Part shown: positions 29,262 to 63,446 of the stretch, piece after piece
How the letters are laid out: every line of letters starts with the position of its first letter
Numbering within the stretch: position 1 is the first letter of the stretch
Assembly: GCA_963743305.1 (NCBI GenBank)
Contig: CAVUPH010000013.1
Location: 1-64,000 of the forward strand
DNA: 64,000 bases
Direction of reading: 5' to 3'
Source of the DNA: an uncultured delta proteobacterium
Lineage (GTDB): Bacteria; Desulfobacterota; RBG-13-43-22
The notes under the pieces: model-generated
Told to the model about the DNA's origin: nothing
The model's database searches: none
The model's input: only the letters and a program-made list of their open reading frames with translations
Position numbers and translations under genes: made by a program

Positions 29262-29416
29262 GACGGAATCGCAAAAAGTTCGTCAGCAGCCCGAGCGCGA
29301 TTAAGCGACGGGCTGGGGTAGGGGTGGGACCATTTGAATTCACTTCAAATGGCGGGGGAGGGGAAGCCCTCCCTCGCCGAGCAGGAAGTCGTTTTTTGAC
29401 TTTTTGCGAGGTCATC
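29262..29416. mobile_element. MITE-like element, cargo type A
   Basis: Ends GACGGAATCGCAAAAAGT / GACTTTTTGCGAGGTCATC; close copy at 49807-49961. Confidence 0.8.
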
Positions 29417-29428
29417 AATAAAGATACC

Positions 29429-30739
29429 ATGAGCGTTTCAATCGACATGAAAAAGCTGGCCGAGTTGGTCCGGGAACTGGAAGACCAGCTTTCGGCCTGC
29501 ACCCGTTGCGGCATGTGCCAGACGGTCTGCCCGCTCTACCGGGAAACCGCCCGGGAGTCCAGTGTGGCCCGGGGGAAACTGGCCATCTTAGGCGGTCTGA
29601 TGGAGGAGGCCTTCCAGGAGCCCCGACGGTCGCTGGAACAGGTTTCTCGCTGTTTGCTCTGCGGGGCCTGCGAGGCCAACTGCCCAAGCGGGGTCCAAGT
29701 CCTGGACATTTTCTTAAAGGCCCGGGCCATCCTGGTTGAATACTTGGGGATGCCCCCGGCCAAAAGGGTGATGTTCAGGCGTTTTCTGGCCCGGCCGGAA
29801 CGATTCAACCGCTGGCTATCCTGGGGGGCCAAGGTCCAGGGGCTGTTCATCAAACCGGCCAATGAGCTATTGGGCACTTCCTGCGCCCGGTTCACCTCCC
29901 CCTTGGCCGACCGTCATTTCAAGGCCCTGGCGGCTGTCCCTTTTCACCGGCAACCCCGGAAAGAAAATCCAAAAGTCCGCCCTTCAGGGATCAAGGCGGC
30001 TTTTTTTTATGGCTGCCTCATCGACAAGGTTTATCCGGCGATCGGGCAGGCGGTGCTGAAAAGTCTGGATCATTTTCAAGTGGAGGTATTTTTGCCCGAA
30101 GGGCAGGGGTGCTGTGGGTTGCCGGCCTTGTCGGCCGGCGATCGGCAGACTTTCAACCAACTGGTCGTCTATAATCTGGATCGTCTGGCAGGTCAACCCG
30201 TGGATGTGCTGGTCACCGCCTGCCCCACCTGCGCGGCCACGATTAAAAAAATTTGGCCGCTGATGGCCCGGGAGCTGAACGCCGATCAACGAGACCGGGT
30301 CCGGGACTGGTCGGAAAAAACGGTGGATATCACCGATTTCCTGATGAGGCAGATGGGCGTATCCTTTCCGGTCTCCCCGGAAAGCAATGAAGTCAAGCCC
30401 GGGATCACCTATCACGATCCCTGCCATCTTCGAAAATCCCTGGGGGTCTTCGCGCCGCCGCGGGCTCTGTTGCAAGGGGATACCCGGTTCCGTTTTAAAG
30501 AAATGGCCGAGGCCGAGAACTGCTGCGGCTGTGGAGGCAGCTTCACCTTGGACTATTATGAATTGTCTTCCGCGGTGGGGGCCAGGAAACGGGCCGCCAT
30601 CCTGGCTTCCGGCGCGGAAGTGGTGGCCACCGCCTGCCCGGCCTGTATGCTGCAGCTCACCGACCTGCTTTCAAAAGGTGCCGATCCCGTTCGGGTCAAA
30701 CATGTGATCGAACTTTTCGCGGAAACGTTGCCGGGTTAA
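29429..30739 (+). CDS. glcF: Fe-S/CCG-domain protein, glycolate/lactate oxidase iron-sulfur subunit-like
   Basis: Two CxxCxxCxxxCP motifs, CCG motifs and TYHDPCHL. Confidence 0.8.
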   Translation: MSVSIDMKKLAELVRELEDQLSACTRCGMCQTVCPLYRETARESSVARGKLAILGGLMEEAFQEPRRSLEQVSRCLLCGACEANCPSGVQVLDIFLKARAILVEYLGMPPAKRVMFRRFLARPERFNRWLSWGAKVQGLFIKPANELLGTSCARFTSPLADRHFKALAAVPFHRQPRKENPKVRPSGIKAAFFYGCLIDKVYPAIGQAVLKSLDHFQVEVFLPEGQGCCGLPALSAGDRQTFNQLVVYNLDRLAGQPVDVLVTACPTCAATIKKIWPLMARELNADQRDRVRDWSEKTVDITDFLMRQMGVSFPVSPESNEVKPGITYHDPCHLRKSLGVFAPPRALLQGDTRFRFKEMAEAENCCGCGGSFTLDYYELSSAVGARKRAAILASGAEVVATACPACMLQLTDLLSKGADPVRVKHVIELFAETLPG

Positions 30740-30780
30740 TACGAAAATTGAAGAGTCGGTGGTTATTCCAGCTTTTTTGA

Positions 30781-31135
30781 AATCCCCCTAAATCCCCCTT
30801 TGCTAAAGGGGGACTTTAACTCCCCCCTTTGGCAAAGGGGGGGGGGATTTTCATGCTTCGTGGGTGCCCGACGGCGCATGGGGATTTGATGCGAGAATAG
30901 CCTTGAACTACGGTTATCCCCCACACCCCCGCCTTCTCCCGCGTGGGGGAGAGGGAGCCCGAGCCTTTTAACTTTCCCTCCCCGACGCGGGAGGGGACTT
31001 CGGCGTGAGCCCTTCGGCAGTGAGCTCAGGGCCGAACTGCTCAGTCGAACGATTGAGGGGGGGGGAACGTTTTTGTTTTGGTCATTTGGATTTTAGACCT
31101 TCGTGTTTGTTACGGATTTCGAATTTAGGAATCTC
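30781..31135. repeat. Cluster of REP-like hairpins, a 52-bp dyad site and a heptamer half-element
   Basis: CCCCCTTTGCTAAAGGGGG-type hairpins x2, TCTCCCGCGTGGGGGAGA, TCCCTCCCCGACGCGGGAGGGGA; site at 30847-30898. Confidence 0.7.
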
Positions 31136-31179
31136 CACTGCTAAGCTACTAGAAACAAATTCTAAGATTGATTAGCACC

Positions 31180-32160
31180 TTAAGCGGGGGCGACCAACAG
31201 CAGCGGTTCCGGTGCGGGGAAGGGGAGGGCGGGGGGAGGAAGATAGAGGGAATAGCGGCCGGGTTCTTTCAGGTTGAGCAGCTTTAAGTCCTCCAGGAAT
31301 TCGTCCCTTTCCCGGTCGCTCGTTCCCGGTTTGGAAAAGAAATTCTCGATCCTTTGCCGCAGGGGAATGAGGTCCCCGGCCTGGGACCAGCGCCGATAAC
31401 TCGCCAAGAACCCCTCGAAGGAGGGGAAACGCAGGGCGGGCAGGGGCAGGGAGGGTGATGGAGATTCGTCACCGGCTAAGGCGTAGTGCTCCCGTCGGAC
31501 CCAGGGTTGGTTGGTTAGTAAACGGACCGGCCCGGGGGCCAATTGGGCCCTCAGCTTTCTCCAGGCGGCCAGGGCCGGTGGACAAACCATTTCCGCTTCA
31601 GTGGGGGAGACAAAGGGTTTTTCGGACGAGGCCCAGTCCAGGGAGAATTCAGGGCTCTGATCCATGATTCGGGCCAGAGCCAGTTCCTGTTCCCCGAAGT
31701 CGCCCAACGAGAGATCGATCTCCCATTCCTTGCTCAGCCAGTCGTGGATAATACAGAGGAATAATTCTCCCGACAGGGTCTGACGAGTTTCCGTCTCCTC
31801 CCTGGGGTTTGCGGGTTGGCCCCTCAGCAGACCCAGTATTTCGTCCCGGCTTTCCAGATGTTCCCCGGGTTTCACCTGCCGGAGATATTCCAGGAAGCTG
31901 AAATCCGGGTTCTGGGCCGCGAAGGATTGAAACTCCCTCAACGCCCTGTCTTTTTGCCTGATTTCCTCCGGGGTTCGATCCGGCGTCAGGACCTGGATCA
32001 GGCCGCCCGTCAGCAGTTCCCGGTAAGGCGCAGGCCATACCAAGCTATAGGGGTGCAGGAAGACCAGCGGCCCAAATAGCAGCAGCGACCAATAGGTGGC
32101 CTCCGGTTCCATTAAGGTGTAGGGGGTAACCCATACTTGCTGGATACGGTTTTTTTCCAT
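31180..32160 (-). CDS. Hypothetical protein
   Basis: 326-aa ORF with ATG start filling the gap; no recognised motif. Confidence 0.65.
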   Translation of the reverse strand: MEKNRIQQVWVTPYTLMEPEATYWSLLLFGPLVFLHPYSLVWPAPYRELLTGGLIQVLTPDRTPEEIRQKDRALREFQSFAAQNPDFSFLEYLRQVKPGEHLESRDEILGLLRGQPANPREETETRQTLSGELFLCIIHDWLSKEWEIDLSLGDFGEQELALARIMDQSPEFSLDWASSEKPFVSPTEAEMVCPPALAAWRKLRAQLAPGPVRLLTNQPWVRREHYALAGDESPSPSLPLPALRFPSFEGFLASYRRWSQAGDLIPLRQRIENFFSKPGTSDRERDEFLEDLKLLNLKEPGRYSLYLPPPALPFPAPEPLLLVAPA

Positions 32161-32254
32161 GAGGGCAATGTATTAGAAGGGGGTCAGCTTGTCAATTGAT
32201 AACCGCGCCCTCAATAGAATCCCCGTCAAAAATGCTATTCGAAAATTCAGTATT

Positions 32255-32397
32255 GATGGTTTCGCAAAAAGTCGAAAAACCCGTCATTGCGAGCGAAGCG
32301 AAGCAATCCCCACCATGGCAACTAGCTGATTCTTGGGGATTGCTTCGTCGCTTCTCTCCTCGCAATGACAACCCGGGGGACTTTTTGCGAACTCATC
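32255..32397. mobile_element. MITE-like element, cargo type B (GTCATTGCGAG...CTCGCAATGAC), with 6-bp TSD AGTATT
   Basis: TIR GATGGTTTCGCAAAAAGTC / GACTTTTTGCGAACTCATC; AGTATT at 32249-32254 and 32398-32403. Confidence 0.85.
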
Positions 32398-32583
32398 AGT
32401 ATTGAAATAGCTTTCCGATATCTCCTGTGCTCAGACCGACTCGGTCTGCCGACCGAGTCGGTCTTACCCTCGGGCAGTCCCTTAGGCTTTTTTATGCTTC
32501 GCGAGTGCCCCCAGGGACATGGAGGTTTTATCGGAAAAAATTTCTTGACTCTTTTGATTAAATAGCTTATCTTATGTGTCAAT

Positions 32584-32645
32584 GCGGCCATGAAGGCCAG
32601 TAACAGTGGGAACTGTTATGGAGACTTCATGGCCGTTTTTTTTTT
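32584..32645 (+). promoter_or_regulatory. Leader terminator/attenuator upstream of cbiM
   Basis: GCGGCCATGAAG...CTTCATGGCCGT followed by a T-run, downstream of a TTGACT-N17-TATCTT promoter-like sequence. Confidence 0.6.
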
Positions 32646-32672
32646 GCTATTCACCGAGTCTAAGCGATTTTT

Positions 32673-33314
32673 ATGCATATACCGGATGGTTTTTTAAGTA
32701 ATACCATTAACCTGACAACCTTTGGGCTCTCGGGGATCACTCTGGCCTGGTCCTTGAAAAAGGCCAAAGAGGAGATCAGCGACCGGGAAATCCCGCTCAT
32801 CGGCGTCACCGCGGCCTTTATTTTTGCGGCCCAGATGATTAATTTTCCGGTAGCCGGGGGAACCAGCGGTCATTTTTTGGGAGCGGCCCTGGCGGCCATT
32901 CTTCTCGGCCCCTGGATCAGTTTTATTATTATGTCCCTGGTGCTGGTGCTCCAATGTTTAGGCTTTGCCGATGGGGGGTTGACGGCCCTCGGTTCGAATC
33001 TATTGAATATGGGATTGATCGGCGGTATCGGGGTTTATTACCTTTTTCGCCTGGTTCTGGCCCTGACCTCCAAAACCACCCGCGGCTTTCTATTGGCCGC
33101 GGCGGTCGCTTCCTGGTTTTCGGTGGTGCTGGCTTCCCTGGCCTGCGCGGTGGAATTGGCCCTGTCCGGTACCTCGCCGGCCAAGATTGTTATCCCCGCC
33201 ATGGTTGGTTTTCACGCCTTAATCGGCATCGGGGAGGCGATCATTACCACCGCGATTCTGTCGGCGGTCCTGGCGGCCCGTTCCGATTTGATCCGCACTT
33301 GGAGGACGGCTTGA
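32673..33314 (+). CDS. cbiM: Co/Ni ECF transporter substrate component
   Basis: N-terminal MHIPDGFL and GTSGH. Confidence 0.92.
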   Translation: MHIPDGFLSNTINLTTFGLSGITLAWSLKKAKEEISDREIPLIGVTAAFIFAAQMINFPVAGGTSGHFLGAALAAILLGPWISFIIMSLVLVLQCLGFADGGLTALGSNLLNMGLIGGIGVYYLFRLVLALTSKTTRGFLLAAAVASWFSVVLASLACAVELALSGTSPAKIVIPAMVGFHALIGIGEAIITTAILSAVLAARSDLIRTWRTA

Positions 33315-34216
33315 GCAGGAAAGGGGGACCTTTCATTGGGTTGGGCCTGGCCTTTCTGGTCTTGGGGTTGGGCTTTCCGGTCCTTCTGTCTGCCGGAACG
33401 GTCGGCCCTTTTGTCGCGGATTTTGCCGATACGCAGGAACCCGGCAAATTATCCCTCCAAATCATCCCGGTTTTAGGTTTGAAGCAGGGGGAATTTGATC
33501 AGGATGGGAAGATCCGGTATTTGCCCAGCGGCGACCGGGATACTTCCCTGACCCTGGGTATACTCCCTATCTATGGAATAGCCGAGGATCTCGAAATTTC
33601 CGGAGAGGTGCCGTTTATCTATAACTGGAAAAGCCAATCGGGCCGCTCCGCGCAGGATGGAGGGGTGGGGGACATGGCCCTCAAAATGAAATATCGGCTC
33701 TTTGAGGGAGAAAGAGATGGTTGGGCCCCTTCCGTCTCCACGATTGGCAGGGTCCGCTTCCCGACCGGAAAATACGATAACCTTTCGCCGGATAAAATGG
33801 GTGCGGACGCCGCGGGAAGCGGCGCCTACCTGTTTACTCTGGGAGTCAATGTCGGAAAATGTACCGGCCAATGGCAGGTCACGGCCAACCTCTGGTATAA
33901 CTGGCCCCTGGAAACCAAGGTGGACGGGGTCAAGACGAAGGAGGGGAATTCCTGGTTTTATGCCTTGACCGGAGAATACGCGGTTTCCAAACACTGGTCG
34001 GTCCTATTGGAGTTTTATGGGCAGGAACAGGGGAAGACGGAAATAGACGGTCGGGCGGAGGACCAATCGGAATCCCGGGTGCTGAATGTCCTACCCGGAA
34101 TCGGATGGGACATCTCGGAGAAGATGTATATGATGGCGGGCTGTTCCTTCCCACTCCTGGGCAAAAACAGCAGCTTAACCATTAGCCCGTCTCTTTTTTT
34201 CAATTACAATTTTTAA
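33311..34216 (+). CDS. Putative outer-membrane beta-barrel (MetA-pathway/DUF3187-like transporter)
   Basis: Signal peptide, GVGDMALKMKYRL, FPTG and C-terminal aromatic YNF. Confidence 0.7.
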   Translation: MSRKGGPFIGLGLAFLVLGLGFPVLLSAGTVGPFVADFADTQEPGKLSLQIIPVLGLKQGEFDQDGKIRYLPSGDRDTSLTLGILPIYGIAEDLEISGEVPFIYNWKSQSGRSAQDGGVGDMALKMKYRLFEGERDGWAPSVSTIGRVRFPTGKYDNLSPDKMGADAAGSGAYLFTLGVNVGKCTGQWQVTANLWYNWPLETKVDGVKTKEGNSWFYALTGEYAVSKHWSVLLEFYGQEQGKTEIDGRAEDQSESRVLNVLPGIGWDISEKMYMMAGCSFPLLGKNSSLTISPSLFFNYNF

Positions 34217-34230
34217 ATGCCGCACCCTCT

Positions 34231-34548
34231 ATGGAAACGAACCGAATGTCCCCAAAGAAGATTATCCTCGCCGGAATTTTATTGGCCCTGGTGGTGGCCT
34301 GTTTTCTATCCCCCTGGGCTTCTTCCTGGCCGGATGGGCTGGAGCGGGTGGCGGAGAATCTGGGTTTCCTGAAAAAAGCGGATGTCCCAGGGGTCTCGAT
34401 CTGGGAGAGATCGCCGCTACCCGACTATAAAATTCCCGGGGTTCAAAATGAACATTGGGCCACCGGTCTGGCCGGACTGGTCGGGACCCTGGCCGTGGCC
34501 GCTATCGGCTGGGGACTGGCCCGATTATTAAAGAAAAGGGGATCGTGA
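34231..34548 (+). CDS. PDGLE-domain protein (NikN/CbiN-like)
   Basis: ASSWPDGLERVA..PLPDY. Confidence 0.9.
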   Translation: METNRMSPKKIILAGILLALVVACFLSPWASSWPDGLERVAENLGFLKKADVPGVSIWERSPLPDYKIPGVQNEHWATGLAGLVGTLAVAAIGWGLARLLKKRGS

Positions 34549-34554
34549 CCTCTC

Positions 34555-35325
34555 ATGGAACATAGTTTTTTAGACCGTTACAGCCACCTGGGCAGCGTCA
34601 TCCACAACCTGGACGCCCGGACCAAAATCCTGTCTTTTCTCGGTCTGATCGGGCTGACGGTTTTGACGCCGCCCCAGTACTGGCCCATATTCCTGGCCCA
34701 TTTTACGCTAATGGCCCTGGTGCTGATTCTCTCCCGGGTGCCGGTGGGGTATGTGCTGACCCGTTCCCTGATTATCCTGCCTTTTGTCTTGCTGACCGCT
34801 ATCTTCCTTCCCTTTCTCCCGGGAGACCGTCCGGCCGGCGGAACCAGCCTGGGGATCGGGACCGTGACTTTGACGGCTTCAGGCCTTCAGGTTTTCTGGA
34901 ACATCTTCCTCAAGGGCTTCCTCGGCGTATTCGCCATTATCCTGCTTTCGGCCACCACCCCCTTCCCCAGGATTTTGGAGGCCTTGAGGAAATTCAGGAT
35001 CCCGGCGATTTTTACCCTGCTTTTGGGGTTTATCTATCGCTATTTGTTTGTTCTTTTGGATGAAGTCCTGCGCATGAAGCAGGCCATAGAATCCCGGGGC
35101 TATCGGGGCCGGTGGATCTGGCAGGCCAAATCGCTGGGTCGAATGTTGGGCCAATTGTTTCTGCACACTTACGAGCGCGGGGAGCGGGTCTATCTGGGAA
35201 TGATGTCACGGGGCTTTCAGGGAGAAACCAGGAGCCTGACCCCTTCCCGTCTGCGGCCGGGGGATTATCTTTTCCTGCTCCTGTTTCTGTCGGTGACCGC
35301 TCTTTCCCAGCTCCTCTTTCGATGA
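34555..35325 (+). CDS. cbiQ: ECF transmembrane component
   Basis: IHNLDARTK, FIYRYL and ERGERVY..MMSRGF. Confidence 0.9.
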   Translation: MEHSFLDRYSHLGSVIHNLDARTKILSFLGLIGLTVLTPPQYWPIFLAHFTLMALVLILSRVPVGYVLTRSLIILPFVLLTAIFLPFLPGDRPAGGTSLGIGTVTLTASGLQVFWNIFLKGFLGVFAIILLSATTPFPRILEALRKFRIPAIFTLLLGFIYRYLFVLLDEVLRMKQAIESRGYRGRWIWQAKSLGRMLGQLFLHTYERGERVYLGMMSRGFQGETRSLTPSRLRPGDYLFLLLFLSVTALSQLLFR

Positions 35326-36099
35326 ACGCCATAGAAATTCGCCATCTCTCTTTCACCTATCCGGATGGCCATCAAGCCCTGAAAGGATTGAACCTGGCGG
35401 TGGAACGGGGGGAATGCCTGGGGTTGGTCGGTCCCAACGGGGCCGGCAAATCCACGCTGCTGCTGCATTTGAACGGCCTCATCCCCAGTCCCAACGGCTC
35501 GGTCCGAATTTTAGGGGAAGTCATCACCAAACAGACGCTGCCCGGGGTGAGACAAAAGGTGGGCATGGTTTTTCAGAATCCGGACGACCAGCTTTTTTGC
35601 CCCACCCTGTTTGAGGATGTGGCCTTCGGCCCCCTGAATAGCCGGGTCCCGGCCGAAGAGGTCCCCGGAAGGGTGGCCCAGGCCCTCAACAAGGTGGGCT
35701 TGGAAGGTTTTGAGCAGCGCTCACCTCATCATATGAGTGTGGGTGAAAAGCGGAAGGCCTCGCTGGCGACGATCCTTTCCATGGACCCGGAGATCATCGT
35801 GTCTGGATGAACCTTCCAGCAACCTGGATCCCCGTTCCCGCAAGGAACTGATCCGCCTGCTGGCCTCTTTTACGGAAACCCGGATCGTGGCCACCCACGA
35901 TCTGGAAATGGTCCTGCAGCTTTGCGACCGGGTGGCCCTGATGGACCAGGGGGTGGTGGTGGCCCTGGGCCTGCCGGAGCAGGTCCTCAGCGACGAAGAA
36001 CTGCTGAAGTCCCATGGGCTGGAACTTCCCGAGATCCTGCGCCTGGTCCCCGCGGAAAAACGACTGGAATTGGTTTCCCGTCTTAAAGACTACTTCTAA
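35322..36099 (+). CDS. cbiO: ECF ATPase (frameshift near 35800)
   Basis: GPNGAGKST, VFQNPDDQLF; LDEP and THD in the next frame. Confidence 0.9.
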
Positions 36100-36267
36100 T
36101 TTCCTTCCTGTTTCCTTAAGAAGATCCCGAGGTTGTCCAAGACGAGGGAAATTACCCTGCCGGCGCGGTTAAAGGGTACCGGTAAAACAACCGATCAATT
36201 AGTTAATTCTGGCCTATCCCTGCCGAAAGGACCGGGTTGGGCCTTCTTCATCTCCGTCTCAGAAAAT

Positions 36268-37803
36268 ATGCCGCTATTCGACAATAAAATCTTTTTCGCA
36301 GATATACTTCAGCGTATATTCCTCCCGAAGCCGTTTCTCTATCCTGATGAGGCCCTTGACGGACTGAATTATTGGCGGGAACGTATGGTACTGGCGGTGC
36401 TGGCCGCCGGAGGTTGGTTGTCGTTGTTAGCCCTGGCACCCGCCTTCTACCTGGCGCTGACGAGGGGACTATGGCTGCTGCTGATCGTCGATATCGTCGC
36501 CTTCCTCATTACGCTTAATCTGCTGATTTCCCATCGTTTCGGACTACGGACCCGGGCCTTGGCCGTGCTGCTGATTACCTTTACGGTAGGGGCGGTTATC
36601 ATTGTTCAGGTTGGATTTCTGAGCGCCGGCCCTGCCTGGCTCTTCTGTTTTTCAGTGCTGGCCGGTGTCTTTTTAGGGCTGAGAGGCGCGCTGGCGGCGA
36701 CCCTGCTGAACGCCGCTACGATCGTTTTGCTCGCTTGGTTCGTCTATCCCGGACAAGCAATGGAGCAGGAGTTTCTGATGTCCACCAGTCGGTCGATCAC
36801 GGCGGGGGCCAATTTCATCTTTCTCAACGGGGTGGCGGCGATTTCGGTGGCCGCCCTGGTAAACGGGCTGCTGGCGTCGAATCGGAAAACCGTTGCGGCC
36901 ACAGCCGCTTTGAAAGAGGAAAAGGCGGCTCTGCTGAAAACCAGGGAAAGCCTGAAGGAGGAGATTGCCGTCAGGAAGAATTCCGAGAAGGCTCTCCAGC
37001 GCAGTGAACGGCAATACCGTTTATTGGCTGAAAATATCAAGGATGTCATCTGGACCATGGACCTGAATTTCCGGTTCACCTATGTCAGTTCGGTGGTCGA
37101 AGCCATGCAGGGCTGGACACCGGAGGAGATGCTCGAATTAACCTTGGAGAACATCATGTCCCCTTCTTCGCTGGGAGCGGTTTTGGAGGTCTTCAACCGG
37201 GAATATGCTCTGGGGCAGCAGACAGGGGAACACAACCGTTCGGCCACAGTGGAACTCGAACTATTCCGGCGGGATGGCTCCAGGCTCTGGACCGAAGTGA
37301 CCGCCTCTTTCATTCTGGACGAGGAGGGCTTGCCCGTGGGCATACTTGGCGTCACCCGCGACATTTCCGAGCGACGAAAGGCCCAGGAAGAAAAAGAAAA
37401 ACTTTTGGAAAATTTAAATCAATCCCGAAAAATGGAAGCTATCGGCAGACTGGCCGGCGGGGTGGCCCATGACCTGAACAATGTCCTCTCGGGCATCGTC
37501 AGCTATCCCGATCTGCTCCTGCTGGACCTTCCGGAGGATAGCCCGAACAGAGGACCTCTGGAGACCATTCAGGAGTCAGGCAAAAAGGCAGCCGCGATCG
37601 TACAGGATCTATTGACGCTCGCCCGCCGAGGCGTGTCTGTTGCTGAAGTCCTCAATCTGAACGACCTCATTCGGGAATATCTGACCAGCCCGGAATTCAA
37701 ACAGTTGGAATCATTCCACCCGCTGGTGGTTCTTGATAGGCGTCTCGATCCGGCGATTAGGAGCATAAAGGCTCATTGCCCATATCCCGCATCAGGCTCG
37801 TAA
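36268..37803 (+). CDS. Membrane PAS histidine kinase, truncated before the HATPase domain
   Basis: TM helices, PAS and H-box AGGVAHDLNN; no N/G boxes. Confidence 0.8.
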   Translation: MPLFDNKIFFADILQRIFLPKPFLYPDEALDGLNYWRERMVLAVLAAGGWLSLLALAPAFYLALTRGLWLLLIVDIVAFLITLNLLISHRFGLRTRALAVLLITFTVGAVIIVQVGFLSAGPAWLFCFSVLAGVFLGLRGALAATLLNAATIVLLAWFVYPGQAMEQEFLMSTSRSITAGANFIFLNGVAAISVAALVNGLLASNRKTVAATAALKEEKAALLKTRESLKEEIAVRKNSEKALQRSERQYRLLAENIKDVIWTMDLNFRFTYVSSVVEAMQGWTPEEMLELTLENIMSPSSLGAVLEVFNREYALGQQTGEHNRSATVELELFRRDGSRLWTEVTASFILDEEGLPVGILGVTRDISERRKAQEEKEKLLENLNQSRKMEAIGRLAGGVAHDLNNVLSGIVSYPDLLLLDLPEDSPNRGPLETIQESGKKAAAIVQDLLTLARRGVSVAEVLNLNDLIREYLTSPEFKQLESFHPLVVLDRRLDPAIRSIKAHCPYPASGS

Positions 37804-39130
37804 AGGCCTCCACGCATTCCGGGCATAGTTGCCGGCCCTGTTCCTCTTCAATGATTTCCATGGCCCGCTCGTGGCTCAAGGCCCGCCGATAGGGACGATC
37901 GCTGGTCAGGGCGTGATAGGTGTCGGCCACCGCCGTCATTCTGGCCCAGAGCACTATTTCTTCCCCTTTAATCCCATCCGGATAGCCGCCGCCGTCAAAA
38001 CGCTCATGGTGATGAAGGATGACCGGAAGCAGCGGTTTAATGCTGGGAATCGAACCTAAAATGGAGGCGCCGATAACCGGATGTTTTCGGATGACCGCGA
38101 ATTCTTCCGTGCTGAGGCGGCCGGGTTTCAAAAGGATGTGGTCGGGAATCCCGATCTTGCCGATATCATGCAGCCTTCCGGAGATGCCCAGGGATTCGAT
38201 TTCTTCCGGACGGGCATTCATATGGGCGGCCATCTTGGTCACCAGCAGGGCGACGTCCTCGGAATGTCCCCGGGTGTAGTGATCACGGGCCTCGAGGGCC
38301 ACGATCAGGCTGGTGATGCCGGCGAGCATCATTTTTTGTTCCAGATCCAGCCGCTCCCGTTCCTTGAGCAAAAGGAGAAAATGGTCCGAGATCAGTTTCT
38401 CCACGGTGATGACCGCCTGTTCCAGATTAAAGGGCTTGACCAGATAGCCCGCCGCGCCCCATTGCAGCAGTTGCCGCATGACGGCCCGATCGTTATTGGA
38501 GCTCATGACGACAAAAGGAATGGTGCCCAGATCGGGGTCCCCGTGAAGTTTTCGGCAGAGGTCGAGCCCGTTCATCCGGGGCATACCGAGGTCGCTTAAG
38601 ATCAGGTCCGGCCGGCGCTCCGCGATCCGTTTTAAGGCCTGTTTTCCGTCTTCCGCCTCCATGACCTGAAAACCCGCCTCTTCCAGGGCCTGGGTTACCC
38701 GTTGGCGGATATTCGGCGAATCGTCTACCACCAGGACCAGGCGGCTGCGGTGAAATCTGCTTTTCTCGAGGACCCGTTCGATGGTTTCGTTCAGAAGGGC
38801 CTGGGCCTCCGATTTGGAAACATAGGCGGCGGCCCCCACATTGAAGCCCTGTTCCACATCCCGGTCCGTATCCAGGGAACTGAGGATGATCACCGGGATA
38901 CTCCGGGTGACGGGATCGTTCTTCAACTGGGCGCAGAGGCCGAACCCGTCCAGACGGGGCATTTCCACATCGGAGATGATCAGGTCGAAACTCCCGGAAA
39001 AGGCCTTCTCCAGCCCCTCCCACCCGTCTTCCGCCTGAGTGACCCGGGCCCCGAATTTCTCCAGTTGCCGGGTCAGGGCCTTGCGGATGATCGAGCTGTC
39101 ATCGACGATGAGTATCTTGGGTAAATTCAT
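37757..39130 (-). CDS. Dual receiver plus HD-GYP c-di-GMP phosphodiesterase
   Basis: Two REC domains, HDIGK and HHERFDGGGYP. Confidence 0.93.
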   Translation of the reverse strand: MNLPKILIVDDSSIIRKALTRQLEKFGARVTQAEDGWEGLEKAFSGSFDLIISDVEMPRLDGFGLCAQLKNDPVTRSIPVIILSSLDTDRDVEQGFNVGAAAYVSKSEAQALLNETIERVLEKSRFHRSRLVLVVDDSPNIRQRVTQALEEAGFQVMEAEDGKQALKRIAERRPDLILSDLGMPRMNGLDLCRKLHGDPDLGTIPFVVMSSNNDRAVMRQLLQWGAAGYLVKPFNLEQAVITVEKLISDHFLLLLKERERLDLEQKMMLAGITSLIVALEARDHYTRGHSEDVALLVTKMAAHMNARPEEIESLGISGRLHDIGKIGIPDHILLKPGRLSTEEFAVIRKHPVIGASILGSIPSIKPLLPVILHHHERFDGGGYPDGIKGEEIVLWARMTAVADTYHALTSDRPYRRALSHERAMEIIEEEQGRQLCPECVEAFTSLMRDMGNEPLCS

Positions 39131-39298
39131 GATCAGGGGTCTGGCCGGGAACGGTCCTTTCCACCGGAACAATCAAATTACGGCATCGAATTATTCTCGG
39201 CAGTTTGAAATGTTTACTTTAATCGGATGTCCTTTAGTGTCGCCCGGCACTCTATAGCAGTCTCATAATTGAAGCAACCTCATTTAGTCTTGATTTTT

Positions 39299-39317
39299 TA
39301 TACGCCAATGGCGTATA
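39299..39317. promoter_or_regulatory. TA operator palindrome
   Basis: TATACGCCA-A-TGGCGTATA immediately upstream of the toxin remnant. Confidence 0.65.
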
Positions 39318-39324
39318 GTTGATC

Positions 39325-39405
39325 ATGCGTTTTATCGAAACTCCTATAGCGCAAATAAAGCTGCTAAGTAAGCTGGCAGATGAGGAGTTCCATGGAAAAA
39401 AGTAA
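39325..39405 (+). pseudogene. Internally deleted RelE/HigB-type toxin
   Basis: MRFIETPI joined to AQIKLLSKLADEEF, overlapping the antitoxin start. Confidence 0.6.
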
Positions 39406-39682
39406 ATTCAACCGGTTGGTAGAAAGCATAAAGCAGGCCGGAAAAATAAAGCGGGGCGAGTTAAAACCGGAGAGAGAATTTCGTTTCAGCCCGGCCGATA
39501 TTAAAGAAATCCGATTGAACCTGCGTAAATCTCAGGCGGAATTTTCTCTGATGATCGGGGTAAGCGTCTCCACGCTTCAGAATTGGGAGCAGGGCCGGCG
39601 GGTCCCGGAAGGGCCCGCCCGGGCCCTACTTAAAATCGCCGCCGAAAAACCAGGGGCGGTTATAGAGGCCTTGAGTGGTTAA
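39392..39682 (+). CDS. HigA/NadS-like HTH antitoxin
   Basis: IKEIR..SQAEFS..TLQNWEQGRRVPEGPARALL. Confidence 0.9.
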   Translation: MEKSKFNRLVESIKQAGKIKRGELKPEREFRFSPADIKEIRLNLRKSQAEFSLMIGVSVSTLQNWEQGRRVPEGPARALLKIAAEKPGAVIEALSG

Positions 39683-40100
39683 TGGGGACTTTCTTCGGCT
39701 TGGCCCTATTCGTCGGAGGAAAATAGCAGGTAATAATTCACCGAATTCCCAACAGGGCAGAAATCCACCGACCTTTGATCACCTCCCGGTCGACTTTTCG
39801 TTTTGAAGATCTTACGGGATTCGATTCCCCGGCCCGTCACGTGGTGCAAGGCCCCGGGGACGTTCGGGCGAACACTAATCGAGGCTTGCTTTTTTCTTAA
39901 GTCCTTTTTACAACCACCGGCAAGTATATTCAGAAACTACGAACCCCTGTCTCTAATAGGATGTCCCCCTTTGTTCGATCCCGGACCTGGGAGCCGTACA
40001 CGGAAAAATGGGACAGCAACCGGTCACCGGCCTTCGCCCCTTTGACCAGCCATGTTAAGTATTTCTTGCGCTATTCGCGAATTGCGAATATAAAACGGCC

Positions 40101-40612
40101 ATGAATCTTAAACCCCAGGACATCTATATCCTTTTGAAGCTCGTCGCACTGGGTGAAGGCCAGTGGTCTTATGCATCCGTGGCCGGCGATCTGTTCATGA
40201 GCGCCTCCGAGGTCCATGCCGGCATCAAGCGCGCCAGTTGCCGCTCGCCTGATGCATTCGCAAGGCGGACGCCCCTGAAAAAATCGCTGGAAGAATTCCT
40301 CATTCATGGCGTCAAGTATGCGTTCCCGCCGGACCATGGCGGACTGACCCGGGGCGTTCCTACGGGATATGCGGCGCCGCCGCTCAAGGACATCATTTCC
40401 CAGCCGAACGAACCGCCCCCCGTCTGGCCGGATCCGGAAGGCAATACCCGCGGCTATGAATTCTCGCCCCTGTACAAGACCGTCCCGAAGGCCGCATTAA
40501 AAGACAACAACTCTATGAATTGCTGGCGATCGTTGACGCCATCCGCGACGGGAGAGCCCGCGAAAGAGAAATCGCCATCAAGGAACTCAAGGCGCGATTG
40601 GGATCAGGATGA
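40101..40612 (+). CDS. HTH-containing protein, putative partner of the nucleotidyltransferase (frameshifted)
   Basis: LKPQDI..SASEVH..EEFLIHGVKYAFP..RGVPT..PVWP. Confidence 0.65.
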
Positions 40613-41310
40613 TCAATACCAGAGACATCAATATTCGGATGATCATCGCCGTGGCCAAACGTCTCGGCGATCTGAGGGACAAGGTCGTCTTCGTCGGGGG
40701 ATGCGCCACGGGATTGTTCATCACAGATCCCGCCATGCCGGAAGTCCGGGCCACCCAGGACGTGGATGTCATTGTCGAGGTCGCCTCGCGGATGGACTAT
40801 TACCGGCTTGAGGAAGAACTCAGGATCAGGGGCTTCAAACAGGACATGAGTGAGAATGCGCCGGTCTGCCGCTGGCTGGTGGATCGGATCAAAGTCGATG
40901 TCATGCCGACTCAGGAAGAGATCCTGGGGTTCTCCAACCGCTGGTATCTGCCCGCCATCAAGAACGCGGATCAGCTTCAATTGGAAGACGACCTGACCAT
41001 CAAGCTGGTCACGCCTCCCTATTTCCTGGCGACCAAGATCGAGGCCTTCAAGGGCCGCGGCGGCGGCGATTATATGGCCAGTCACGACATGGAAGACATC
41101 ATCACGGTCCTGGATGGCCGACCGGAAATCGTTTCGGAAATCAGAAGCTCATCGGATGATCTGAAGATTTTCTTATCCAGAACTTTCGAGGGCTTTTGGC
41201 AAAGGATGAATTCCGCGATTCGATTCCCGGCCATCTTCCCCCCGATCGTGCAAGCCAGTCACGATTGCCTCTGCTCATGAAATGCATCGAGGAGATATCA
41301 AAGATTCATG
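40609..41310 (+). CDS. Nucleotidyltransferase-fold protein (AbiEii-like; frameshift near the 3' end)
   Basis: VFVGG, RATQDVD, VDVMP, ATKIEAF..R and SHDMED. Confidence 0.7.
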
Positions 41311-41549
41311 ATTCTGTGCGGTAAAATTTGCATTGGGTATAGTGCGGAGTGCAGAGCGTAGCGTTTAAAAGACATTTATCGGACACTAAAACGCCTACCG
41401 CAAAGGAACCCCCGCCGGAGGCCGGGCATTTCTTCTTTTGCTTCTGTCTTCCCTTTGGTCATTGTCTCCATACCCCCTGACAGAGTTGCTTACTCGTCTG
41501 GGATTTCCTTGACAGCTACGGGTGGAGCCGCTATGATCTTGGTGATGTC

Positions 41550-42470
41550 TTAGAGGTGCTGGTAGTTGTCTTTCAGCCATCTCAAGTAGTAGCCAGTACT
41601 GAACAAGTAGTCCTCGTTGAGCTTTGCCTTTGCATCTATGAACGCGCATACGGCATATATCACTTCAGGTCTTGATTCCACCTGGAGTATTGAGTAGGAA
41701 AAAGCCAATTTCTCTTCGTCAGTCTCTTTCCCGTCTGACAGAAACTCCACAACATAAACAATCCTTCGGTCATGTGGAACTTTCGGATAGTTCTTGACGT
41801 ATTCAGCCCTCTTCCAATTTTCCATTTCGTTGAACCCATAGTACCTGGCATCTTTCCTACGATTGAGTCCCCAGTAATCCGAAGTTACCGCCTCGTAGTC
41901 TGCGCGCAGTTGACTAAGGATGGGTCTCAACTGTTTTTCGGCGATGACCCTAATTCTAGCGTTTGTACTATGGGACATGGCCCAGAGCTTCCTTAAGGCC
42001 CGGACATCATGAGACGCACTGATGGCAGCGACGCTGACATCAACCAGCAAGGAGAGATCATCCAACAATGCTTGAGTTGACGAAGCTACAGTTTGCGCCC
42101 TCAAGGCTTCCGTTGTTGCAGATTGAGCGATGCGCAGTGCATCTTTGGCCTTAATCTTTTCTTTTTCAGCCTCATCCAGATTCCTCTTGGTTAGATAGAC
42201 ATTTGCCGCCGAAATGCATACCAAGATAATCGAAATACATGTGGAGACAACCAGAAGAACCTGGCCAAAGTAGTTCCAGACCCATTTCTGATGACCTCTG
42301 CAGGTTGGGCAGACTCTTGCAGAACTAGAGATGGACGAAGAACACCAACGGCAAAGCGTTGAGCTGCTTGCTGAATGTTCGGCAATCTCCTGCGTTTCTG
42401 CAGAAGAGATCGCCGTCCCATCAGGCTCCGGATCGTCGTAAAGTAGTCCATTTCTATCTTCCTTACTCAC
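41550..42470 (-). CDS. Hypothetical membrane protein with N-terminal zinc ribbon and coiled coil
   Basis: CRWC..CPTC and one TM helix; AT-richer than the host genes. Confidence 0.7.
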   Translation of the reverse strand: MSKEDRNGLLYDDPEPDGTAISSAETQEIAEHSASSSTLCRWCSSSISSSARVCPTCRGHQKWVWNYFGQVLLVVSTCISIILVCISAANVYLTKRNLDEAEKEKIKAKDALRIAQSATTEALRAQTVASSTQALLDDLSLLVDVSVAAISASHDVRALRKLWAMSHSTNARIRVIAEKQLRPILSQLRADYEAVTSDYWGLNRRKDARYYGFNEMENWKRAEYVKNYPKVPHDRRIVYVVEFLSDGKETDEEKLAFSYSILQVESRPEVIYAVCAFIDAKAKLNEDYLFSTGYYLRWLKDNYQHL

Positions 42471-42493
42471 TTCTCGTTTCCCCGTCTTCTATT

Positions 42494-42553
42494 GCCCAAC
42501 TGTTGAACTGTGCGGCGCGGCTTATTTGCGTCCTCTCCAGTGATTGTTTGGGT
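42494..42553 (-). other. Integron attC site (after mrr)
   Basis: ACCCAAAC-AATC-ACTGGAG...CACAGT-TCAACA-GTTGGGC. Confidence 0.7.
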
Positions 42554-42555
42554 GA

Positions 42556-43419
42556 TCATTTCTTGTAGTCTTCGAAGAATTTCTCATCAATTTCGTAAGT
42601 TCGCACCGGGATAAGACCCAGTTCGAGACGTTCGAATATATCGACAAGATTGTCCCCATCTACAAGTTCGATAGGCGGGACCCCATCTCGCCGGGACTCT
42701 TTTTTTGCGTCAAGCGTGAATGTGCCCGTGGTTATGATCAGACCCTTATCGGCACGCCCCATCATCGCACCGCGAAAATCTCGAACATGCGAGGGAGTGA
42801 CGGCACCTTGATATCGTTTACACTGGAAGAGGACGTTGAAGCTCACGAAGGGATTCACTTGGAGAGTACCGACACCGTCAATGCCCCCATCACCGCTCTT
42901 TCCTGTAACAGACACGTGCTGAAACCCAGATTCCCGGAGCAGTCTCTGGCTAAGTCTTTCGAATCCGCTCGGGGACAATGACTTGATCAGTTCAAGGAGT
43001 GCTGTTCTGTAGTCCCTCTCTTCAGTTTTAACGGCCACCGGGTCATCTGCTTGCTGCGCTTCTTGCCTCTTTGTGTTCTTTAACTCGGCACGGCTGCTCT
43101 GGACGCTCTTGAATAGCTCAAGTTCTTTGAACGCGGAAAGGTTTATTGACCAACCCTTGTCCGTAAGGCCCCACACACCTCTCTTCGAGGAATCCAAATA
43201 ATTCGCCCAAACGAGATACTGGCGTGCCCAATGCACTTGGTTTTTCACTCGTGAGAGGCCGTTTTTGTTGACGGCTTCCTGTTCGGCCTCCGTAACCTCG
43301 GCAAGTTCCAAAGACCGGTCGACAATTTCCGAGGCCGTTCCGGACCCACCAGACTCCTTTAATACCTGTAGAATTGGTCGAAAGAAACGGATGAATTCCG
43401 GACCCTTTGCTTGTCTCAT
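42556..43419 (-). CDS. mrr: Mrr-family type IV restriction endonuclease
   Basis: Mrr_N (WARQYL..SKRGVWGLT), FERL, DGGIDG, QCKRY and IELVDG. Confidence 0.93.
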   Translation of the reverse strand: MRQAKGPEFIRFFRPILQVLKESGGSGTASEIVDRSLELAEVTEAEQEAVNKNGLSRVKNQVHWARQYLVWANYLDSSKRGVWGLTDKGWSINLSAFKELELFKSVQSSRAELKNTKRQEAQQADDPVAVKTEERDYRTALLELIKSLSPSGFERLSQRLLRESGFQHVSVTGKSGDGGIDGVGTLQVNPFVSFNVLFQCKRYQGAVTPSHVRDFRGAMMGRADKGLIITTGTFTLDAKKESRRDGVPPIELVDGDNLVDIFERLELGLIPVRTYEIDEKFFEDYKK

Positions 43420-43433
43420 ATCATCCTCTTGTC

Positions 43434-43498
43434 ACCCAAGACTAAGCTAAGCGGCGTGGCGACTTTTTGCCTCGTCCGTCTTGAGCGATCTGTTAGGC
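43434..43498 (-). other. Integron attC site (after the DUF2442 gene)
   Basis: GCCTAAC-AGATC-GCTCAAG...CTTAGC-TTAGT-CTTGGGT; L boxes pair with one extra base. Confidence 0.75.
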
Positions 43499-43743
43499 GC
43501 TGTTTTTCCATTGGTCCACAGTTCATATTCACTCAGGTCAATATCATCACTCCACGAAATACCATAACCTCCCGGATCGACGTGAACAGCATTGAAAAAA
43601 GCAGGGTTCGCAAGTAAGTGAAATTGCGGTCTGGAAAGGAGAGGACCACAATCATAGATTTTTTTAATTCCGCCCTCGAAAGTGACAAGTAGTAGCGCTT
43701 CTCCTATGGTTTTTACAGCTTTAATTTTTGGTATCTTTTCCAT
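43447..43743 (-). CDS. DUF2442-family protein (antitoxin-like)
   Basis: LLVTFEGG..FFNAVHVDPGGYGISWSDDIDL. Confidence 0.8.
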   Translation of the reverse strand: MEKIPKIKAVKTIGEALLLVTFEGGIKKIYDCGPLLSRPQFHLLANPAFFNAVHVDPGGYGISWSDDIDLSEYELWTNGKTAPNRSLKTDEAKSRHAA

Positions 43744-43961
43744 TTTCAATGATCTGCTTTGATACGAGAATAAAGCCGAGATCCTCTCATTCCGGCGGCA
43801 TGGGAGCCGCCTCTGCTAAGAGGTATTCCCAAGCTATTCGCCCTACCCAGCAGAGTGGACTCCCGCTCCCGCGGTTTTCGCGTTTCGTGGGTGCTCAGAC
43901 GGGCATGGGATTTTAATACGAAAATTAAATCAAACCCCGCATTCAAGTCTTTGTTTTCGTC

Positions 43962-44059
43962 GTCATGCCGGGCTCGATCCGGCATCCAGGGCAATGGAGC
44001 TTAACCGGACTGGATTCCGGCTGGAGTTTACCCCGATCTTGAGGCGGGGCCAGAATGAC
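43962..44059. repeat. GTCAT...ATGAC REP-like palindrome
   Basis: GTCATGCCGGGCTCGATCCGGCATCCAG...CTGGATTCCGGC...GCCAGAATGAC. Confidence 0.65.
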
Positions 44060-44197
44060 TACCTTTTTCCTGACCAAGCTTTATTTCCATGATCCGCGAG
44101 TGCCCGCCCTGGGCATGGGGGTTCAATCGGTCTTTAAATACGTCAGAGTTTGGATAATTGTTGTTTTTATACCCCGTATTTGGACCGGCCAATAATA

Positions 44198-44243
44198 AAA
44201 AAGGGGCCAACCCCGCTTCGATGGGGTTGGCCCCTTGATTTTT
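44198..44243 (-). terminator. Terminator of tRNA-Pro
   Basis: AAGGGGCCAACCCC-GCTTCGAT-GGGGTTGGCCCCTT with adjacent A-run. Confidence 0.8.
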
Positions 44244-44244
44244 C

Positions 44245-44321
44245 TGGTCGGGACGACTGGATTTGAACCAGCGGCCCCCTGAACCCCATTCAGGTGCGCT
44301 ACCAGTCTGCGCCACGTCCCG
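44245..44321 (-). tRNA. tRNA-Pro (GGG) with encoded CCA
   Basis: CGGGACGTGGCGCAGACTGGTAGCGCACCTGAATGGGGTTCAGGGGGCCGCTGGTTCAAATCCAGTCGTCCCGACCA. Confidence 0.96.
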
Positions 44322-63154: not shown

Positions 63155-63292
63155 GTGCAGCTCCTCCCGGGAAGTTTTTTGTTTGGGAATATATCATCCC
63201 CTCCTCCCAATATTCAACCTGGAATACCCGGGGATTTAACCCTCCAGGCCCGGGATGGGCGCCCCGAAGCCTGAAAATAGAATGGTATACGG

Positions 63293-63389
63293 GTCATTGC
63301 GAGGGGCGAAGTGACAAAGCAATCCCCCCATTGAGCTTGGGGATCGTTGCAGGCAAACTGGGGGATTGCTTCGCCTCGCTCGCAATGAC
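63293..63389. repeat. Stand-alone GTCATTGCGAG...CTCGCAATGAC palindrome
   Basis: Same family as the type B cargo, without outer TIRs. Confidence 0.8.
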
Positions 63390-63446
63390 AGGCGTGTGCG
63401 GTGGCATTTTCGTATTAAGTGGTCACCCTGAAAGGAAAAGCGTCCT

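Follow-up and report, generated by a model that had tools for sequence, protein, structure and literature searches.

The stretch of DNA analysed here, a window of 64,000 nucleotides from an uncultured delta proteobacterium (positions 1 to 64,000 of contig CAVUPH010000013.1), carries several copies of a 52-bp site which we name H. Our analysis suggests that H and a 13-mer, TTAATACGAAAAT, located upstream of it on the same strand, probably mark both ends of small mobile units, a lineage-specific family that is non-coding and non-autonomous; the genome itself is uncultured and of the sulfate-reducer type. The 13-mer and H enclose palindromic cargo in a one-sided and directional order, neighbouring copies form direct arrays, the frame of the unit is kept across the family, and sister species differ by units that one or the other has gained, lost or exchanged, with the junctions fixed. 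From these observations we infer that the events are enzyme-catalysed site-specific recombination, and likewise the kind of enzyme proposed below.

The original prediction had described three 52-bp dyad sites in the window. All three are present letter for letter (starting at 30847, 32488 and 43874, + strand), and two further copies located at 44083–44130 (+) and 63236–63278 (-, starting at 63278) bring the number of H copies in the window to five. An nhmmer profile seeded with four of the window copies gave 161 matches at E<10 in its first pass over G000, the 4.9-Mb assembly to which the window belongs. After three iterations on the contigs of G000, 142 copies were found at E<1e-3 and 115 at E<1e-5. 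They are spread over most contigs at dozens of intergenic loci, 128 of the 142 being intergenic by a crude open reading frame (ORF) call. The copy number of the H family is beyond chance at the level of the genome; a 13-nt piece of H alone, with up to two mismatches, shows no excess over chance in the window (11 found, 11.1 expected).

The consensus of H is ATTTTCATGCTTCG(N)GGGTGCCCGCCCCGGGCATGGGGGTTTAATACGAAAAT, with ATTTTCATGC at the 5' end and GGGTTTAATACGAAAAT at the 3' end. Conservation is 80–99% over the left 14 bases and 40–60% over the last 10. The sequences ATTTTCATGC and ATACGAAAAT are inverted copies of each other, with six perfect bases followed by transitions. Such copies flank both the core of H and the cargo, so that more than one pair could be taken as terminal inverted repeats of a classical miniature inverted-repeat element.

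The exact 13-mer upstream of H occurs 37 times in G000 and never in a reversed-genome control; allowing one mismatch raises these numbers to 103 and 6. It is located 16–210 bp upstream of 69 of the 142 H copies on the same strand, as compared with three copies having it downstream on the same strand, two upstream on the opposite strand and none downstream on the opposite strand. A more permissive search for the TTTARTAYGAAAAT word (14-mer, up to three mismatches, within 230 bp, same strand) places it upstream of 93 of 140 H copies and downstream of only nine, with 12 of 140 on the opposite strand. The pairing of site and upstream 12-mer, proposed originally from three sites, is therefore general in the genome. 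The three 12-mers are indeed present at 30737–30748, 32235–32246 and 43760–43771; however, they match the consensus of the family and not the right end of their own site, as had been claimed. The word pattern is found 153 times in G000, where about 20 hits are expected by chance. Among the 125 words located outside any H, 69 are followed by H within 230 bp, and the rest are mostly found before cargo-like repeats with no H after them or in coding DNA.

Several features of the word indicate how a unit is bounded. Upstream of the left word the DNA is unique and only (Y)TTA is kept. In the ten nucleotides after GTTTA, agreement with the word amounts to 7.6 of 10 positions where another repeat comes next (n=33) and to 6.0 of 10 where unique DNA does (n=96), which fits a partly host-derived right end. 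When one type of cargo (type A, described below) was searched without using the word, 30 of 32 copies with an intact left end were seen by eye to have the word in front of them, within DNA that is otherwise unique, and only 2 of 32 had an H core there; the word therefore belongs to the left end of the cargo and not to the right end of H alone. Neighbouring H copies not more than 230 bp apart are direct in 12 of 12 pairs.

Cargo modules and the units of the window

Between word and H lie palindromic non-coding modules of 16–210 bp in length which belong to several families. Type A (about 22 units; 71 nhmmer matches in G000) is a palindrome of G/C blocks in the order C-block, loop, G-block, short loop, G-block. 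This order of C-block, G-block and G-block is that of the BoxC/PIT/TMECO intrastrand-triplex repeats (PMC4666352). Types B and D (together about 28 units) are inverted hairpin pairs starting with CGTCAT... and fit the NTS/SRM motifs, which are substrates cut by GIY-YIG Ssn nucleases (PMC11893778); they resemble the gene-less SRM-ssn-SRM units of that source. In type E the inner palindrome is AT-rich and is not always there, as seen at locus C13:105305. Further cargo comprises types F and G together with modules of low copy number. The modules are repeats of kinds already known (pairs of Ssn-motif-like hairpins, G/C palindromes of the triplex type and AT-rich palindromes), which ride in the frame of H and word. 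The likeness to SRM/NTS and BoxC/PIT/TMECO repeats concerns these passengers and not the frame, as H and the 13-mer fit neither consensus.

A few individual modules are worth recording. The lead-in of type E, CCCGGCGCCACTCGGGCAT, 14 nt past the junction, is similar to the hairpin of H, with which it shares its final CGGGCAT (for example at C29:43396 and C26:19308 of G000), and it is absent from the other types. In the same-genus genome G002, one type E module has its AT-rich palindrome interrupted by an insert of 870 bp (C28:284944–285816), which looks like coding sequence in decay. The G002 ortholog of window positions 32160–32700 (C28, about 295140–295720) has a small, complete GIY-YIG (Ssn-like) gene between inverted CGTCATTCCGGCGAAAGCCGGAATCC-type hairpins, inside a unit that runs from word to H. 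Three Ssn-like GIY-YIG loci are present in G000, one of them cut by a contig end (C2:3–316), and none is near H.

The units of the window and the elements associated with them are as follows.

30735..30748, + strand: left word GTTAATACGAAAAT of unit 1; the TAA that it contains terminates the CCG/4Fe-4S gene upstream, and the position is word-like in all four genomes of the genus
30749..30846, + strand: type A cargo of unit 1 (nhmmer family in G000)
30847..30898, + strand: H copy 1 (profile search)
30899..31130, + strand: type F and further repeat modules behind H copy 1, not closed by an H (repeat depth; at other loci an F module is followed by H)
32235..32246, + strand: 12-mer CTATTCGAAAAT of the original prediction (read in the sequence)
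32247..32405, + strand: nested classical miniature inverted-repeat transposable element (MITE), with inverted ends around CGCAAAAAGTC and a type B hairpin pair inside (TCAGTATTGA direct repeats at 32247–32256 and 32396–32405)
32406..32487, + strand: type G cargo, a AGCTTTCC...CAGACCGACTCGGTCTG hairpin (sequence and repeat families)
32488..32539, + strand: H copy 3 (profile search)
43742..43771, + strand: hairpin-less short form consisting of left arm ATTTTCA, a short spacer and the word TTTGATACGAGAAT (includes the predicted 12-mer at 43760–43771)
43772..43873, + strand: low-copy cargo of unit 2 (sequence and repeat depth)
43874..43925, + strand: H copy 2, with 3' end TTTAATACGAAAAT (profile search)
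43926..44082, + strand: type D cargo, inverted hairpins (CGTCATGCCGGGCTCGATCCGGCATCCAGG...) resembling the Ssn motif (by the NTS/SRM consensus of PMC11893778)
44083..44130, + strand: H copy 4, in direct tandem 208 bp past copy 2, with a degenerate right end (profile search)
63236..63278, - strand: H copy 5 (profile search)
63279..63419, - strand: type B cargo and left word (63406–63419) of the unit of H copy 5 (repeat families and sister comparison)

Hairpin cargo was proposed to be the only content between word and site; however, the unit starting at 32235 is broken by the nested MITE, which is a separate, classical element. The TCAGTATTGA repeat flanking this MITE is itself word-like. The same MITE family is found again in G003, at the ortholog of G000 locus C16:27205, where it is flanked by CAGTATT and also lies inside word-like sequence. 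The family may therefore prefer the same kind of target as the H units.

In all four genomes of the genus the stop of the CCG/4Fe-4S gene falls inside the word (30735–30739), and the left end of the element seems to have supplied or fixed the end of this gene.

Sister-species alleles and distribution in the family

Three other genomes of the genus are syntenic with the window, and their identity to it is about 95% for G002 and about 85% for both G001 and G003. At locus 30735, word-like sequence is present in all four; it is followed by A, H and F modules in G000 and by D, H and another module in G002, whereas A, D and H are missing from G001 and G003. At locus 32235, G001 is empty, G003 has the word and an F module, and G002 has the word, an F module, the GIY-YIG unit and H. 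At locus 63236, G003 is empty and G001 contains other modules. Comparison of the 786-kb contig of G002 with G000 yielded 18 collinear gaps with H in one or both genomes, of which 16 were read; at nine more loci units have been swapped or added.

Two of these polymorphisms are clean enough to map the junction, and they place it at TTA, just 5' of RTAYGAAAAT. In the first (C13:164665), an extra unit of G002 is present directly 5' of the resident GGTTTAGTATGA... word. The resident variant of the word remains on the right while a consensus word appears on the left, an arrangement which indicates exchange within GGTTTA. In the second (C16:27205), the empty alleles of G000, G001 and G003 bear word-like sequence. 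The filled allele of G002 joins host ...AGTTT to AATACGAAAAT-cargo on the left and H...GGGGGTTT to AGTACTCAAAT on the right, and its right word is like that of the empty alleles and not like the consensus. Left and right words of this recent insertion differ at 3 of 14 positions. Duplication of an arbitrary flanking target, as in a classical MITE, was considered and is excluded, because the flanking words share one genome-wide consensus and the two copies at C16:27205 differ.

A covariance model built from 38 H copies, a scan that the original prediction had proposed, was run against 20 other genomes of the family (four genera) and 40 genomes from other families of the phylum. H is present in 19 of the 20 family genomes, with counts ranging from 3 (in G005) to at least 93, and absent from G006, a genome of the same family which is 97% complete. 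Outside the family, weak matches alone were obtained, in 2 of the 40 genomes. An exact-pattern scan with one genome per species returned 49 loci. Their sources are metagenome-assembled genomes (MAGs) labelled uncultured delta proteobacterium, Deltaproteobacteria or Thermodesulfobacteriota, the one exception being a 3.6-kb contig from a Terriglobia MAG. The word is upstream of 20 of the 34 H copies on the 786-kb contig of G002 and, as judged by eye, of 16 of the 19 evaluable top-scoring loci of G004, G007, G011 and G013. Cargo at the loci of these four genomes is different and includes, for example, short tandem runs of GGGATCA or CGAACAT. The frame of H and word is thus kept across four genera while the cargo is lineage-specific.

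Two neighbouring features of the window lie outside the units. One is a MITE of about 150 bp (29265–29415) with inverted ends around CGCAAAAAGT, which lies shortly before the CCG/4Fe-4S gene; the final ~95 bp of this MITE (29324–29420) occur in many copies, with 94–96% identity in G001–G003 and about 85% in G017. The ORF start at 29324 is probably spurious, and the ATG at 29430 comes after the MITE. The other is an islet of about 4.2 kb (39227–43435), containing an HTH_3 gene, two genes with no Pfam match, a Mrr-type restriction gene and an adjoining DUF2442 gene. It is replaced by about 0.4–0.9 kb in G001 and G003 and is situated near a tRNA gene (44248–44321). This variable islet is perhaps what was originally taken for an attC array abutting one of the units. 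We could not confirm such an array: a crude RYYYAAC...GTTRRRY scan of 33000–44300 found none, and a repeat search over the same region gave no attC-like family.

Proposed mechanism and competing explanations

In the mechanism that we propose, a unit consists of RTAYGAAAAT-A, a short conserved lead-in, palindromic cargo of 16–210 bp, ATTTTCATGCTTCG, a GC hairpin and GGGGG-TTTA. A trans-acting site-specific enzyme would pair the H end of the unit with a (Y)TTA/RTAY..AAAT-like word elsewhere (the slash marks the junction), with strand exchange at or within TTA. After insertion, the left word would be composed of host TTA and RTAYGAAAAT of the unit, and the right word of GGGGGTTTA of the unit and the word-like remainder of the host. 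As both copies of the word would then be usable, it is proposed that units stack head to tail in direct arrays. Cargo may be exchanged or lost via recombination between H copies or words, and an excised circle would join ...CATGGGGGTTTA to ATACGAAAAT-cargo.

Several points weigh against this reading. Homologous recombination between 52-bp repeats could yield many of the swaps, and the clean polymorphisms on which the junction is mapped number only two. The right junction at C6:159679 contains extra sequence that the simple model does not foresee. The empty alleles at 32235 (G001) and 63236 (G003) have no word at all, so that at these loci either the unit brought the word along or the empty allele arose by deletion. 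No autonomous copy was seen in G000, where a search for gene-bearing units with long cargo returned only pairs that span ordinary neighbouring genes. No enzyme was found: genes of the IntI, IS200-type Y1, long-Y1, IS110 and Ssn-like kinds do not lie next to H and do not share its distribution, although tyrosine recombinases were not surveyed as a whole. Finally, two hand-set registers of the H hairpin show no significant covariation, with pairing of 73.1% and 76.7% as compared with 71.8% and 76.1% in column-shuffled controls.

The hairpin deserves some further description. The consensus of H can fold as CATGC/GCATG with CGGGG/CCCCG, or as GTGCCCG/CGGGCAT, at -10.3 kcal/mol (z = -2.1). However, the copies in the window fold no better than shuffles, and RNAalifold gave no consensus pairs for 38 H copies. 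In the absence of covariation beyond shuffles, the fold is best regarded as a property of the consensus or master sequence, and selection on the pairing is not supported.

It is possible, though not probable, that the arrays are a passive mosaic of the type formed by repetitive extragenic palindromes (REPs), bacterial interspersed mosaic elements (BIMEs) or neisserial intergenic mosaic elements (NIMEs). H would then be a structural or protein-binding element, and the arrays would change by homologous recombination, slippage and gene conversion with no dedicated enzyme. Such a mosaic would agree with the lack of an enzyme linked to H, with most of the species differences being replacements within loci already occupied, and with the decay of H copies without compensatory change. 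NIME arrays behave in a similar way and their mechanism is also unsettled (PMC1797815). However, it accounts poorly for the new unit at C16:27205, a site unoccupied in three sister genomes, with its sharp junction. Neither the one-sidedness of the word (93 versus 9 of 140) nor the 12 of 12 direct arrays are expected from homology-driven shuffling alone, and the frame persists over four genera while cargo turns over.

A bolder version of our own reading is doubtful at present. It holds that H and the 13-mer are the substrate of a new site-specific recombination system, whose enzyme lies outside the IntI, RAYT and IS110 families and which inserts folded-site cassettes into TTA/RTAY-type words chromosome-wide. 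With regard to IS110, five matches are present in G000 and none is within 5 kb of H. At two places (C24:103852–106326 and C16:19723–20672) an IS110-family gene is directly beside a long-Y1 gene or fragment, which suggests a composite element or a preferred insertion site of that insertion sequence (IS). One tyrosine recombinase gene (C41:10867–11757) has H 138 bp away, but chance alone should yield about one such case, given 13 candidates and the presence of H beside about 7% of genes. A search for an E. coli-like dif site, following the idea of a Xer-type enzyme, gave one match with eight mismatches, which was uninformative, and the idea was abandoned. The window itself, as originally noted, contains no recombinase among its 55 ORFs (Pfam, E<=1e-5).

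We consider it unlikely that the units are mobilised as single strands by an HUH (Y1) enzyme, in the manner of IS200/IS605 palindrome-associated elements or of REPs and their RAYT transposases, with the H hairpin as a one-strand signal of the right end and insertion 3' of a short word. The hairpin is located 9 nt from the 3' end of the unit, insertion is orientation-specific and takes place beside a short word equal to the last bases of the unit, one of the two hairpin registers is closed in 23 of 38 copies by G.T, which can pair on one strand only, and ten Y1_Tnp matches are present in G000. However, the co-occurrence of H with an HUH transposase that the original prediction had envisaged found no support. 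The nearest H to any of the ten Y1 genes is 3.7 kb away, and the flanks of these genes have neither H nor cargo modules. A family of long-Y1 proteins (330 aa), found in 34 of 61 genomes, does not track H either, as G006 has 20 matches and no H whereas G031 has 55 H copies and no match. The orientation of H agrees with GC skew in 52 cases and opposes it in 53 (331 versus 195 for a gene control), and the lack of replication-strand bias weighs against a lagging-strand mechanism like that of IS200/IS605. Moreover, the left ends have no common hairpin and differ by cargo type, and neighbouring copies are direct and not inverted as in REPINs.

That H is a divergent attC site of a true integron, recombined by an integron integrase, is very improbable despite a parallel geometry: H is folded with inverted ends and a central hairpin, the junction is just 5' of the right inverted repeat, which heads the next unit, units follow head to tail and different cargo occupies the same position. 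IntI (TIGR02249, E<=1e-40) was not found in 12 of the 20 family genomes, including the H-rich G001–G004, G007, G008, G011 and G012, yet it is present in H-free G006. G000 has a sole IntI-like gene, on another contig (C17:137519–138450, near the contig end and 57 kb from the nearest H), and its sequence is divided between two frames (profile positions 3–248 score 258 bits and positions 242–313 score 100 bits), which reflects either a frameshift or an assembly error. Furthermore, the ends of H are not RYYYAAC/GTTRRRY, the cargo in G000 is without genes, and the units are scattered over dozens of sites instead of forming one array at a single attI platform. attC sites are conserved mainly in structure, whereas H is conserved in sequence. 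The integron logic ascribed to these sites at the outset thus survives in the directional grammar of word, cargo and folded site, the direct arrays, the gain, loss and swap of units and the attC-like junction, and fails in the link to IntI, the core, the coding cargo and the single platform.

Equally remote is a transcribed regulatory or small-RNA element (terminator, stabiliser or riboswitch-like), which the fold of the consensus and the position of some copies right after stop codons might recall. H has no preferred orientation towards the genes beside it (40 co-directional, 36 anti-directional, 26 divergent and 23 convergent), which argues against a transcript-linked role, and H has neither a T-run nor covariation. 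No credible Rfam match was obtained either, the search at gathering score returning two tRNAs only and a permissive scan of 30700–32600 staying far below the family cut-offs.

Relation to known repeat systems and significance

Returning to small mobile units bounded by the 13-mer and H, the closest among described systems is the NIME array of Neisseria, from which H differs in sequence, asymmetry, strict direction and host. In NIMEs, dRS3 repeats separate RS elements, which are families of non-coding repeats of 19–214 bp, and syntenic intergenic arrays vary between relatives; a site-specific recombinase has been proposed for them but not proven, and as of 2007 NIMEs had not been seen outside Neisseria (PMC1797815). 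H is likewise a conserved short repeat that separates diverse repeat families in syntenic arrays varying between relatives, and cargo types B and D are themselves dRS3/NTS-like (PMC11893778). In contrast to dRS3, with its ATTCCCN8GGGAAT motif (PMC1797815), H is 52 bp long, asymmetric, strictly directional and unrelated in sequence. In addition, the H units start with a 13-mer repeating the 3' end of H, their arrays comprise mostly 1–3 units, and their host is an uncultured family of Desulfobacterota.

H shares with REP/BIME and REPIN-RAYT systems its abundance, intergenic location, hairpin, mosaic association with other motifs and lineage-specific sequence. However, no RAYT gene flanked by H was found and the copies are direct, not inverted doublets, so that the match to a REP, which the original prediction had named as evidence against itself, was not obtained. 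We know of no counterpart of the one-sided order of word, cargo and site in either of these systems. Unlike palindrome-associated elements of the IS200/IS605 kind, H units have a hairpin at the right end only and show no strand bias. In the literature searched, neither the H 14-mer nor its complement had a match and the 13-mer occurred in one unrelated plasmid paper; a search for intergenic mosaic palindromic repeats in Desulfobacterota turned up no description.

Mosaic intergenic repeats such as BIMEs and NIMEs have been known for decades, and the account of how they are assembled is unsettled. The H family is unusually legible in this respect, with a directional frame, a junction that can be mapped to a few bases, cargo turnover between sister species and conservation of the frame over four genera. 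The mechanism of assembly can therefore be tested, with junction reads and with a search for the enzyme by phylogenetic profiling. The units also show that one element can carry others along as passengers, here Ssn-motif hairpins and triplex-type palindromes. The annotation of such MAGs is affected too, as H units occupy intergenic DNA, provide stop codons and give rise to spurious ORFs. If the new recombination system that we regard as doubtful were true, it would represent an 'integron without a platform', with cassettes of structured non-coding DNA, retained through the whole history of a Desulfobacterota family.

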